Shown piece by piece: positions 60,658-64,000 of a stretch of 64,000 nt of DNA. Made by a program: the position numbers and the translations under genes. The DNA is taken from NCBI RefSeq assembly GCF_056746865.1, contig NZ_CM163382.1; one strand, given 5' to 3'. Each line of letters starts with the position of its first letter. The stretch's first letter is position 1. Under the pieces are notes generated by a model. It did no database searches, was not told where the DNA came from, and saw only the letters and a program-made list of their open reading frames with translations.

Positions 60658-62628
60658 TCAGAACGTATACTCGATACCTGCCCAGAAATTGCGACCTTCT
60701 TCAATAAACCCTTCACTGTAGGCATATTTGGTATCAAACAGGTTATTGACCGACGCATTGACGCTGAAGCCATGACCTAAGGTGTAATCGGCTCGAATGT
60801 GGGTCACCGCAAAACCGGCGGCTTTTTGTGAACCGTCACTGTTGCTGTAGCTGGAGGAACGCGCCTCTTCCGACAGCGTTACGCTTAACGGCTCCCACGG
60901 TTTGAGAGTCATCCATGCGGTTATTGTCTGCGTTGGCAGATCGGTTATCTTGCCGATGTCTTTGCGTTTGGCGTCAGCGTGGATCAGGGCGTAGCTCAAT
61001 CCTACATCCAGTATATTGCTGATTTTCCCCTTAATACCGGCATCCAGACCGCTGTAATCCACCGTGCCGCTGTTCTGATTTTGAATGGTATCGGCATCGA
61101 TATTGTGCGAGAGGATGGCATCACTCACCCGGTTATAGTAAACGCTGACCTCAAACCCCCAGTCGTGCGTGAAGGCACCATTCCAGGTTAAATCCACCCC
61201 GCGCGCGCGTTCCGGTTTGAGCTGCGGGTTAACAATCGCTATCTGGTTATACGCAGGTTTGGACGTGGTATAGCGTTCTTTCAGCGTCGGAAAGCGTGTG
61301 CGGTCATAGTACGAAAGCGCCAGCGTGTCTTCATTGGCAAAGTGGTATTTCCCCATCACCTGCCAGTTAAAAGCTGACTGATTGTTGTCGTCATAATGGG
61401 TGATGCTTCCATCTTTCTCATGTTTTTTCGCTTCTACGCTATCGCGCCAGTCATAGCTGATTCCAGCCACGACATCGACATTATCGGCAGCAGCCCATTG
61501 ATATTCACTGGCGAGCGACCAGGTACGATCTTCATAGCGATCGTAAGCGGCGTGCGGCGCACCTTTTTCCCGGTGTACGTCATCTTTCCAGTTAACGGCA
61601 AACGACAGCAGATCGTTTTCACGCACATCGGCTGCCAGTTGTAACCCGGCACCGTCGCTGTAATCGGAATAATGGCTGTAGCTGCCTTTTTTATTTTTCA
61701 AATCAGCCAGCGAGTTGTACATCATCAGCGTATTTTCAAAGGTGTCGCGATATAGCCGACTTTTCAGGGTAAAACGATCGTTTAGTTGGGTCGTTCCCTG
61801 ATAATAAAAACTTTCTTTGTCATACTCTGGCCACTGCCAGTAGCGTGATTTTTGACCACTATTTCCACTGTATGGTGGGTTATCTTTTTCACCATCCTGC
61901 TTAATGTAAGTCAATGTGTATTCATCGTTTTCGCGTGGTGTAAAACCGAGCTTCACAATGCCGCGTTTATCATCAGCCGATGAATTAATCATCTTGCCGT
62001 GTTTGCCTGCAATATCATTATTTACACCATGCGGCAGGCCGAGAAAATCCTGCTTTAGCTGACTACCGCTGACTTGCAAATACCCCAGATCGCTGCTGGC
62101 GGCAAATGAAGCATGCATATCGTAGGCATTGTCCTGGCTACGGCTCCATCCCTGGCGATATCCCAGATTTGCTTCCAGAGGTTTTGTTGGCTTCTGGGTG
62201 GTGATATTAATGGCTCCGCCCATCTGATTAGGCCCCTGAAGCAGCGACGAATACCCTTTGGAAACTTCAACTGCCCCCAAATTGTTGGTCAGAATCCGCG
62301 CCAGATCGAGGTTGCCGTCATAGGGAACATAAATGGGCACACCGTCGAAATAGACCGGCACCTGACGACTATCAAAGCCACGAACTTTTACCTGTTCTTC
62401 GTTGCGGCTGCCTGACTTTTGCAGCACCACGCCGGGGACGACACTTAATGCCTGAGCGACATTCTGTTTATCCAGGGCCTTCATGGTGGGTTGATCGAGA
62501 ACGGTGGTCGTCGTCGATGATACCGGACTGGACCATACGGTCAGCGTGTCGCTCTCCTGAGCCGCTACGGCCTGCTGGGTAAAGGCAAGTGATAATGCTG
62601 TGCAGAGATAACGTTTTTTGAGTCTCAT
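60658..62628 (-). CDS. TonB-dependent outer membrane receptor (accessory, not in the K-12 order)
   Basis: Signal peptide, TonB-box-like DTLTVWS, plug and barrel, C-terminal ...GIEYTF. Confidence 0.8.
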   Translation of the reverse strand: MRLKKRYLCTALSLAFTQQAVAAQESDTLTVWSSPVSSTTTTVLDQPTMKALDKQNVAQALSVVPGVVLQKSGSRNEEQVKVRGFDSRQVPVYFDGVPIYVPYDGNLDLARILTNNLGAVEVSKGYSSLLQGPNQMGGAINITTQKPTKPLEANLGYRQGWSRSQDNAYDMHASFAASSDLGYLQVSGSQLKQDFLGLPHGVNNDIAGKHGKMINSSADDKRGIVKLGFTPRENDEYTLTYIKQDGEKDNPPYSGNSGQKSRYWQWPEYDKESFYYQGTTQLNDRFTLKSRLYRDTFENTLMMYNSLADLKNKKGSYSHYSDYSDGAGLQLAADVRENDLLSFAVNWKDDVHREKGAPHAAYDRYEDRTWSLASEYQWAAADNVDVVAGISYDWRDSVEAKKHEKDGSITHYDDNNQSAFNWQVMGKYHFANEDTLALSYYDRTRFPTLKERYTTSKPAYNQIAIVNPQLKPERARGVDLTWNGAFTHDWGFEVSVYYNRVSDAILSHNIDADTIQNQNSGTVDYSGLDAGIKGKISNILDVGLSYALIHADAKRKDIGKITDLPTQTITAWMTLKPWEPLSVTLSEEARSSSYSNSDGSQKAAGFAVTHIRADYTLGHGFSVNASVNNLFDTKYAYSEGFIEEGRNFWAGIEYTF

Positions 62629-62653
62629 AGAATAAATTCCGTTTAACAAAGAA

Positions 62654-63508
62654 TTAAATAGAGGCTGCGGGTTGCAGACTGACTTTAATGTCAGCCGGTG
62701 CCGCGTAATAAGGCGCGGAGGTAATAAAAAGGCGAATGCCGCAGTCGAGGTAATTTTTGAGTGTCGTCAGATTAATTCCACCGGTCAGAGCCAGCGTGCA
62801 GTGAGGAGCCAGCGACGGTGCTATTTGCGCAATTTCAGTTGCCTGTTGCGGACTAAATTTGTCGAGCTGAAGTACGTCTGGTTGCGCGCGTAACGCGGCG
62901 ATTGCCTCTTTCGGCGTGTCGGCTTCAACAACTATTTTCTTCTCGGGTGCGTGGCGACGTAACTGATTGATTGCGCCTGACCAGTCCTGATTGTCATGAA
63001 GAAAATGACGGTGGTTGGCAAACAATAATATGGTTTCCGCACATCCGGCACGATGAATCAGTCCTCCGGCAGTCAGAATTGCCTGCGAGGCCAGTAAGCG
63101 GGTGCCCGGAATTGCTTTTCGGGTGCAGGCGATATTGCCATCAGGGTAACGTTCACGAAGTAACGCCAGCATTTGAGTGAGATAATCAGAAACACCGCAA
63201 CTCCACTCCAGCACATTCTGGACTGCCTTCCATCCCTGATGAAGTGCTGCGGCATTACCCTGCGCACGGATTAGCCGCTGACCCGCGTTCGCTTGTGAAC
63301 CGTCGCTGACCGCGTCATCAATAGTTAATCCCAGCGTAGTTAACATCTTACACGCGACAGAAACGCCGCTGACGCAGCCGCCCTGACGGTGAAAAAACTC
63401 TATATAGCCATGCTGGTGTCCAATATTTAATGCTCGCGTGGTCAGGTCACCGCCCTGGATATCTTCCAGAAGTAACGCATCGATTTGTGCCTGAGAAAGG
63501 AAAATCAT
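62654..63508 (-). CDS. modD: ModD-like protein (quinolinate phosphoribosyltransferase fold)
   Basis: 284 aa, immediately upstream of the TonB-dependent receptor on the same strand. Confidence 0.65.
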   Translation of the reverse strand: MIFLSQAQIDALLLEDIQGGDLTTRALNIGHQHGYIEFFHRQGGCVSGVSVACKMLTTLGLTIDDAVSDGSQANAGQRLIRAQGNAAALHQGWKAVQNVLEWSCGVSDYLTQMLALLRERYPDGNIACTRKAIPGTRLLASQAILTAGGLIHRAGCAETILLFANHRHFLHDNQDWSGAINQLRRHAPEKKIVVEADTPKEAIAALRAQPDVLQLDKFSPQQATEIAQIAPSLAPHCTLALTGGINLTTLKNYLDCGIRLFITSAPYYAAPADIKVSLQPAASI

Positions 63509-64000
63509 CGCAGTGCCTCTTGCGGTACGCTATCCCACCAGATGAGCGCCCAGTCGCGGCTGGCAGGGGCGAGGGCACGAGCATCTTGTTGTTGATACCA
63601 GCGATATAACCGCTCACGCTCATCGTCGTTAAGCGCGCCCAGACTCCAGCTGACGTTCTGCTCAAAACGTTCCCAGGTGCTGTTATCCTGTTGGCAATTT
63701 TGTCCACGGATAAAATCAACGTGAGCATAAATTCCCATCTGATACAGGACGTTGAGCGCAAAGATATAGTTGGGTAATTCGATCACTTCCCGACCAGCCG
63801 CCCGCTGAATGGCTGGAGAGACGAACGAGGTGCTGACCAGATGAGTCGTATAGACGCGAAGCCGTGCCTGATTATTCAGTTTGCTCATTGCCTGGCGCAT
63901 ATCAGCCACCAGAGTGGAGCGGGAAGCCACGGCAATATCGCAGCGTGGCAGGTCACTCCAGTCCTCTTCCCAGGCGCGCTGGATCCAGTGGACATTGTCT
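63505..64000 (-). CDS. Putative periplasmic substrate-binding protein of an iron-uptake ABC transporter, 5' end beyond the window
   Basis: In-frame ORF running to the window edge, overlapping the modD start by 4 bp. Assignment rests on operon context and weak C-terminal resemblance. Confidence 0.35.
   Translation of the reverse strand, partial: DNVHWIQRAWEEDWSDLPRCDIAVASRSTLVADMRQAMSKLNNQARLRVYTTHLVSTSFVSPAIQRAAGREVIELPNYIFALNVLYQMGIYAHVDFIRGQNCQQDNSTWERFEQNVSWSLGALNDDERERLYRWYQQQDARALAPASRDWALIWWDSVPQEALR

Follow-up and report, generated by a model that had tools for sequence, protein, structure and literature searches.

A six-gene operon located between ymgE and treA, of which the distal three genes lie at the right-hand end of the stretch of DNA studied here, is probably a ModE-repressed, TonB-dependent, MolBC-like acquisition operon for molybdenum or tungsten with two associated enzymes. 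The stretch, called the window below, comprises 64,000 nucleotides of contig NZ_CM163382.1 (assembly GCF_056746865.1), and the three genes occupy its positions 60658-64000. The cluster has reportedly been on record since 1998, as a "putative iron-uptake" island found in pathogenic Escherichia coli. We estimate at roughly 0.7 the joint probability that the operon is under molybdenum control via ModE, and not under iron control, and that it serves the TonB-dependent acquisition of molybdenum or tungsten. This reading is based on a candidate ModE operator in the leader of the operon, on the recurrence of the same box in front of related genes in other bacteria, on the similarity of the permease to MolB and on the physical joining of the cluster to modABC and modE elsewhere.

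The letters 60658-64000 of the window were read directly, and the remaining genes of the operon were read from a 27.8 kb locus of E. coli strain 118UI (L001), which is 100% identical to window positions 60200-64000 (3.8 kb compared); a window coordinate equals the L001 coordinate plus 48199. In the RefSeq annotation of 118UI the six genes are encoded by the minus strand between treA and ymgE and are transcribed in the order binding protein, permease, ATPase, methyltransferase, ModD and TonB-dependent receptor. The first four products are a Peripla_BP_2 binding protein of 340 amino acids (aa), a FecCD permease of 326 aa, an ABC ATPase of 252 aa and a methyltransferase of 270 aa. All six open reading frames (ORFs) are intact in this strain, and the genes abut or overlap, the biggest gap being 25 bp. 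The original prediction, which was made from the window alone, had described a minus-strand cluster directly after ymgE that encoded a 656-aa TonB-dependent receptor with a TonB box, a ModD-like protein and, in an overlapping ORF continuing past the window edge, a putative binding protein. Three ORFs were indeed found there, and the first two assignments hold. The third ORF does overlap the start of modD by 4 bp (63505-63508) and, read codon by codon, is open to base 64000, but it has the domains of a class I S-adenosylmethionine (SAM)-dependent methyltransferase; the binding-protein gene sits three genes further upstream, beyond the window. The permease and ATPase genes that were expected to the right are present in 118UI, together with this binding-protein gene.

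A predicted ModE operator upstream of the operon

The 118UI locus was scanned with the ModE consensus of E. coli, ATCGNTATATA-N6-TATATANCGAT (PMC545781), each site being scored out of 20. Only one match within 3 mismatches was found in the 27.8 kb, at L001 18908-18935, and none in 100 shuffles. This 28-bp candidate ModE box, TTCGCTATATGTGTAAGTATATAGCGGT, has a TATATA core and is arranged in the operon leader of 118UI as TTCGCTATATG-TGTAAG-TATATAGCGGT. It scores 17/20 in 118UI and 18/20 in O157:H7, the differences between the two strains shifting the latter toward the consensus. A scan of 49 kb of K-12, which served as a positive control, gave just two sites with a score of 16/20 or more; both score 16/20, and one lies immediately upstream of modA, the other of moaA. 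These genes are the two classical ModE targets in K-12. The candidate box spans -50 to -23 relative to the start codon of the first gene, an ATG, and the modA operator spans -45 to -18, meaning that the operon shares with the ModABC/ModE system of K-12 both the operator consensus and the distance to the first start codon. This geometry fits a repressor site, and repression, as opposed to activation, is what the predicted operator would be expected to bring about. A terminator scan reported the palindrome as a terminator-like hairpin, which was regarded as an artefact of its symmetry. Besides, no Rfam match to a riboswitch (cobalamin, Moco or other) was obtained at E <= 1 across the whole operon and its leader.

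The box was then sought elsewhere. By alignment of methyltransferase homologues 80 loci from different species were gathered, and the 79 related loci (1.43 Mb) were scanned. They contained 74 ModE sites of at least 16/20, as compared with 0-3 in block shuffles, and the score histogram was bimodal. Nearly all of these sites (71 of the 74) were situated at most 300 bp upstream of a cluster gene, which was the binding-protein gene in 37 cases, the receptor gene in 24, a lone methyltransferase gene in six, and modA and modE in two each. Of the 79 loci, 52 had one or more sites placed in this way, and the box is conserved across gamma-, beta- and epsilon-proteobacteria. In Proteus, Providencia, Morganella, Shewanella and Pectobacterium, where the gap between the receptor gene and the ModD gene is larger, the receptor gene has a ModE box of its own. 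This suggests that the receptor itself is under ModE-type control.

Relatives of the operon genes were also found physically joined to modABC and modE in other bacteria. The Aliarcobacter operon reads modE-modA-mop-modB-modC-methyltransferase-ModD, and in Halomonas the methyltransferase gene lies between modABC and modE. In a Burkholderiaceae metagenome-assembled genome (MAG; locus L055) the genes for receptor, binding protein, permease, ATPase and methyltransferase are located between modABC and ModD-modE, and the arrangement is reproduced in part in three loci of Comamonadaceae type (L057, L058 and L064). In Edwardsiella the methyltransferase-ModD pair stands alone behind a ModE box. It has been described that in Geobacter ModD adjoins modE and modABC (PMC545781, PMC2700814). 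Because ModD and the methyltransferase occur both with plain modABC and alone behind ModE boxes, their role appears to be independent of the transporter studied here.

A different explanation is that the operon encodes a Fur-regulated system for the uptake of an iron chelate or heme (a ferric siderophore, a ferric citrate-like complex or heme) under iron limitation, and the original prediction had indeed called the cluster iron-uptake-like. The combination of a TonB-dependent receptor with a Peripla_BP_2 protein, a FecCD permease and an ATPase is typical of iron-chelate systems, RefSeq calls the first gene product an 'iron ABC transporter substrate-binding protein', and iron uptake was put forward in publications, in which it is only 'proposed' or mentioned as 'possibly' the function (PMC1890555, PMC12928451). 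In the searchable literature, however, neither an experiment behind the iron label nor a functional study of the cluster was found; the cluster appears there in comparative-genomics mentions only, without a link to ModE. A Fur box was sought as a GATAATGATAATCATTATC-like site, scored out of 19. No match within 3 mismatches was present in the 27.8 kb locus, and in about 50 species the best sites in front of the operon or of the receptor gene scored 13-14/19, none reaching 15/19; several of them overlap the AT-rich ModE box. The Fur box, a search for which had been recommended, is therefore missing from this locus and from the orthologous promoters, a conserved ModE box being found instead. Siderophore-synthesis or heme-utilisation genes are not nearby in the 118UI annotation, and the joining of the cluster to modABC and modE in other phyla is not what an iron system would lead one to expect. 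Taking into account the permease and the receptor as well (see below), we consider an iron or heme system unlikely.

The importer, the receptor and the two enzymes

In a PDB sequence search the best solved relative of the permease was MolB (HI1471) with 224 bits, followed by FhuB (175 bits), HmuU (168 bits) and BtuC (146 bits), and this order argues against the iron alternative. A 19 kb mol locus from Pasteurellaceae (L084), the MolB of which is 96% identical to the known MolB and is encoded next to a MolC-type ATPase, was used for comparison. The permease is 41% identical to its counterpart in this locus, the ATPase 36% (MolC) and the binding protein 25% (E 6e-11). MolBC-A of Haemophilus influenzae imports molybdate and tungstate, and its transcription is repressed by molybdate; repression of molB takes place through an 'unknown factor', and the cluster HI1469-1475 includes modD (PMC4031551, PMC3928620). 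MolBC-A (HI1470-HI1472) and the operon have in common a FecCD-type type II importer, a class III binding protein and a linked modD (HI1473). They may also be alike in their regulation, as molybdate repression is known for MolBC-A and a ModE-like site lies upstream of molA in the close Pasteurellaceae relative. This site, TTCTTTATATACTTTGGTATATAATGCA, is the best one in L084 (7898-7925; 15/20), has a perfect TATATA-N6-TATATA core and is located 34-61 bp upstream of molA. It is a candidate for the site at which the 'unknown factor' represses molB in response to molybdate. Unlike the operon, the Pasteurellaceae locus examined is without a TonB-dependent receptor or a methyltransferase, and the motifs of the binding proteins differ. 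ModABC belongs to the type I importers, has a class II binding protein and is without a described dedicated outer-membrane component, whereas the operon combines a type II importer with a TonB-dependent receptor and two enzymes.

With the operon's binding protein as the query, the PDB sequence search detected a single functionally characterised binding protein, MolA. When the AlphaFold model of the E. coli protein (pLDDT 89.5) was submitted to Foldseek, MolA (3psa; E 4e-15, TM-score ~0.67) was the first characterised match, ranking after the uncharacterised 4pag. The fold search also lists YiuA, BhuT and other iron/heme binders, a point in favour of the iron alternative. Discrimination of the ligand on the basis of the model was not decisive, as iron, heme and B12 binders are close behind MolA. 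The invariant motifs of the binding-protein family, GLETG..GS(L/I)HTEA and LPFGWLD.PPGxNRL, are absent from MolA, and the ligand may consequently differ from the free oxyanion.

This raises the question of whether a ModE-controlled operon could import a cargo other than molybdenum that is required or tolerated during molybdenum scarcity. This might be a pterin or molybdenum cofactor taken up in preformed state, a species of vanadium or tungsten, or some other precursor of a cofactor, to be processed by ModD and the methyltransferase. Apart from the motifs that MolA lacks, it is in line with such a cargo that TonB receptors and type II importers usually carry bulky ligands, that two enzymes are encoded within the operon, and that ModD keeps phosphoribosyltransferase-like catalytic positions in combination with a changed substrate pocket (see below). 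However, the methyltransferase and ModD are also found behind plain modABC, which transports free molybdate, and alone in Edwardsiella, and a bulky ligand is thus not required; besides, the nearest characterised transporter carries molybdate and tungstate (PMC4031551). A cargo of this kind therefore seems improbable. The preferred reading, acquisition of molybdenum or tungsten, leaves room for more than one form of the metal, and the presence of a TonB receptor together with the co-occurrence with modABC in one cluster suggests that the predicted system handles a different or scarcer molybdenum species.

The receptor gene, designated 'prrA' (Z1961/ECs1693), is the last gene of the operon and occupies positions 60658-62628 on the minus strand. 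Its ORF extends to 62649 and would give 663 aa from a TTG; RefSeq uses the ATG at 62628, which yields the 656 aa mentioned above. The protein has a Plug domain (PF07715, E 3e-21, residues 39-139) and a TonB_dep_Rec_b-barrel domain (PF00593, E 1.4e-33, residues 223-630). Its N-terminus reads MRLKKRYLCTALSLAFTQQAVA / AQESDTLTVWSSP..., with a signal peptide followed by the TonB-box-like DTLTVWS, which we take to resemble the BtuB box DTLVVTA, and the C-terminus ends with GIEYTF, i.e. with a terminal Phe. A profile search, which had been recommended for this receptor, supports its membership of the TonB-dependent class but not of a curated siderophore, heme or B12 subfamily. All of these NCBIfam models scored far below their cutoffs: TIGR01783 126.9 against 223.5, TIGR01785 126 against 316.9, TIGR01786 115 against 323.8 and TIGR01779 77 against 599.7. 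This too speaks against the iron alternative. PDB sequence matches of the receptor were confined to the plug domain. TonB-dependent uptake of a non-iron metal under the control of a metal-specific regulator is known for zinc (Zur-ZnuD) and nickel (NikR-FrpB4), and BtuB-BtuFCD is the corresponding system for cobalamin. The predicted system is like these in having an energised receptor under the regulator of its metal, coupled to a binding protein and an ABC importer. It differs from them in that the metal would be molybdenum or tungsten, and similarity between the receptors was undetected beyond the generic domains. No TonB-dependent receptor for molybdenum or tungsten was found described in the searchable literature.

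ModD (Z1962/ECs1694; 62654-63508, minus strand) is a quinolinate-phosphoribosyltransferase-like protein of 284 aa with QRPTase_N and QRPTase_C domains, and it matches TIGR01334 with 501.4 bits (cutoff 178.85). In an alignment with the quinolinate phosphoribosyltransferase (QPRTase) of Mycobacterium tuberculosis the equivalents of TRK, HR, Glu201 and Asp222 are kept, and R105 and K172 are replaced by K and F, respectively. The latter two are presumably quinolinate-binding positions; of the catalytic positions most are kept. This suggests that ModD performs phosphoribosyltransferase-like chemistry on a substrate other than quinolinate. The methyltransferase gene, 'yc73', is represented in the window by its 3' part (63505-64000, minus strand), about 165 of the 270 codons; the full gene lies at L001 15306-16118 and ends at the window-equivalent position 64317. 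The 4-bp ATGA overlap with modD suggests translational coupling of the two genes. Its product has Methyltransf_25/31/12/11 domains. An attempt to derive the substrate from family models and solved structures gave generic class I matches only, the best being CpaM with 43 bits (cutoff 180).

Distribution and history of the locus

Of 5426 complete E. coli genomes, 2136 (~39%) contain the half of the operon that lies in the window, which is absent from K-12; the half beyond the window is present in 2138. The locus is therefore variable, yet nearly always whole where it occurs. Carriers include O157:H7, O55:H7, CE10, ST38, Nissle 1917, CFT073-type uropathogenic E. coli (UPEC) and avian pathogenic E. 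coli (APEC). The cluster was first noted as prrA-modD-yc73-fepC in UPEC CFT073 and corresponds to O-island 55 / S-loop 83 of O157:H7, where it has the tags Z1961-Z1966 and ECs1693-ECs1699 (PMC1890555). Region GR9 of APEC strain BEN2908 (ymgE..treA) is the same cluster, which is common to CFT073, UTI89/RS218, IHE3034 and LF82 (PMC12928451). These published regions have the genes, the ymgE-treA position and, at 98-100% identity, the DNA of the operon described here. What differs is the reading, which was a putative iron-uptake cluster situated on or close to a pathogenicity island in the published accounts and is ModE, molybdenum and an ancestral, differentially lost locus in the present one. 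The locus was thus already catalogued; its molybdenum reading was not found in the searchable literature, although an earlier in silico assignment of this operon to a ModE regulon (e.g. in RegPrecise) may exist.

In K-12 the order at this place is ymgE, ycgY, treA, as had been stated in the original prediction, and ycgY fills the slot of the operon. According to blastn, positions 6100-6482 of the K-12 sequence align with L001 12100-12482 at 97.7% and homology resumes only at the treA stop (L001 19213); between these junctions 622 bp of K-12 (ycgY) and 6730 bp on the operon side are without similarity. The left junction falls at 60681/60682 of the window, within the receptor ORF and 24 bp from its 3' end; these final 24 bp of the receptor gene are retained in K-12. 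E. albertii and eight loci of Citrobacter type have the operon in the same treA | ymgE-ycgR-emtA slot, and in Raoultella and an Enterobacter it adjoins treA, with emtA a few kb further. Its GC content (0.44-0.55) is similar to that of the flanks, and no mobility genes (integrase, IS) or tRNA are annotated at the 118UI locus. On these grounds a horizontally acquired genomic or pathogenicity island was rejected; repeat borders were not searched. The original prediction of an accessory island replacing ycgY is accordingly retained as to the variability of the locus, which is found neither in K-12 nor in all E. coli, and is not supported as to its acquisition, in view of the composition, the synteny and the remnant in K-12. 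The synteny of the slot, the flank-like GC content, the lack of annotated mobility genes and the 24-bp remnant make the operon look ancestral and lost from K-12-like lineages. The simplest history is probably that an ancestral locus was replaced in these lineages.

Outside E. coli the six-gene order was also found in E. albertii, Citrobacter, Serratia, Raoultella, Yokenella, Enterobacter, Affinibrenneria, Pectobacterium, Morganella, Proteus (including P. mirabilis), Providencia and Erwinia mallotivora. ModD is missing in three Shewanella species (L022, L025-L027) and in loci L036 and L040. In Burkholderiales the order is receptor, binding protein, permease, ATPase and methyltransferase, with ModD nearby. 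From scaffold 1 of Affinibrenneria salicis the operon was retrieved twice (L018 and L019; 144-165 kb and 910-931 kb). The two copies are oppositely oriented and have the same match statistics, and they reflect either a genuine duplication or an artefact of the assembly. A 3.2 kb contig binned as a Collinsella sp. MAG (L003) encodes an ATPase, a methyltransferase and a ModD with 98-100% protein identity to those of E. coli, and is almost certainly a binning contaminant.

The variability of the locus bears on a further possibility, that the palindrome arose by chance as an AT-rich repeat or belongs to another regulator and that the operon is a decaying remnant without a current role in E. coli. 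The locus was lost from about 61% of the complete E. coli genomes, the methyltransferase of O157:H7 has an internal stop, and many truncated variants of this protein exist. Against this, the site surpasses two established K-12 operators in its match to the ModE consensus, is kept between E. coli lineages with changes that improve the consensus, and is kept across three classes of proteobacteria (see above). Moreover, the operon is almost always whole when present, and its six ORFs are intact in 118UI. That the operon is a mere remnant is therefore very improbable. As to the methyltransferase gene itself, the truncated variants in the protein search are 97-99% identical. In O157:H7 strain Z1626 (L086) the yc73 gene with the internal stop is at 7806-8618, and other genes are affected as well at 2407-4454 and 11721-12801: an IS3-family element interrupts ycgR, and treA carries a frameshift. 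This pattern suggests repeated decay of the methyltransferase gene alone, the rest of the operon being intact.

On the other side of the receptor gene, the core gene ymgE (60354-60608, plus strand; RefSeq annotation of 118UI), which is common to K-12, flanks the operon on the left and is not part of the system. Between the convergent ymgE and receptor genes, in the segment shared with K-12, lies a perfect 10-bp inverted repeat, GCGGATAGCG-N10-CGCTATCCGC (60621-60650). It was not called by the terminator consensus scan and is probably a bidirectional terminator shared by the two genes. Elsewhere in the window, dadX and cvrA are separated by a segment of some 1.9 kb with a gene (53876-55312, minus strand) for a hypothetical protein of 478 aa that contains leucine-rich repeats (Pfam LRR_4, E 1.7e-7). 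As this segment is missing from K-12, it constitutes a second variable segment in the same window.

Predicted mechanism and implications

Several observations weigh against the molybdenum reading. The regulation, its direction and the substrate are all predicted from sequence, and the operator and three of the six genes are beyond the window and were taken from a genome that is identical over the 3.8 kb compared. The consensus scan called no sigma-70 promoter on the strand of the operon in front of its first gene, where a perfect TTGACA is accompanied by a poor -10 element. The binding protein is only 25% identical to MolA, which lacks the invariant motifs of its family, and iron, heme and B12 binders follow MolA at similar TM-scores. 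Weak functional Fur sites may exist, which would leave co-regulation by iron possible, the methyltransferase gene is a pseudogene in O157:H7, and the literature consistently labels the cluster an iron system (PMC1890555, PMC12928451).

On the molybdenum reading the operon would work as follows. When molybdate is sufficient, ModE-molybdate would occupy the operator and the operon would be off; during molybdenum shortage it would be expressed. The receptor, energised by TonB, would then carry a molybdenum (or tungsten) species across the outer membrane, and the binding protein would hand this species to the MolBC-like type II ABC importer. ModD and the methyltransferase would act in the cytoplasm on a molybdenum-related substrate. 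The transported species could be the free oxyanion or a complex, and the chemistry of the two enzymes is likewise a prediction.

A more far-reaching, and at present tentative, proposal is that the operon represents the first TonB-dependent outer-membrane route for molybdenum, in which a molybdenum or tungsten complex, and not the free oxyanion, is taken up via PrrA and the MolBC-like importer under molybdenum starvation. Its users would be Shewanella, Burkholderiales and many Enterobacterales (pathogenic E. coli, Citrobacter, Proteus, Providencia and Morganella). The complex could originate from a 'molybdophore' or be a molybdenum species that the host or its microbiota supplies, and ModD and yc73 would be new cytoplasmic molybdenum-handling enzymes. 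MolA's affinity for both molybdate and tungstate is only ~100 uM (PMC4031551). Uptake of a molybdenum complex, if true, would explain this weak binding of free molybdate.

If the molybdenum reading is correct, it would correct an iron annotation that has been widespread for about 25 years and concerns an operon carried by ~39% of the complete E. coli genomes. It would provide the first candidate outer-membrane transporter for molybdenum, and two orphan families, ModD and the yc73 methyltransferase, would gain a regulon and a context open to testing. It would also put ModE forward as the 'unknown factor' by which molybdate represses the mol operon of Haemophilus. Tungstate has served to block molybdoenzyme-driven anaerobic respiration. 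Molybdoenzymes (nitrate, DMSO and TMAO reductases and formate dehydrogenases) support the anaerobic respiration of Enterobacteriaceae in the inflamed gut and the urinary tract (PMC7759655). The operon would, if the more far-reaching proposal holds, constitute a second entry route for molybdenum and tungsten, relevant to molybdoenzyme-driven blooms in the gut and to tungstate treatment.

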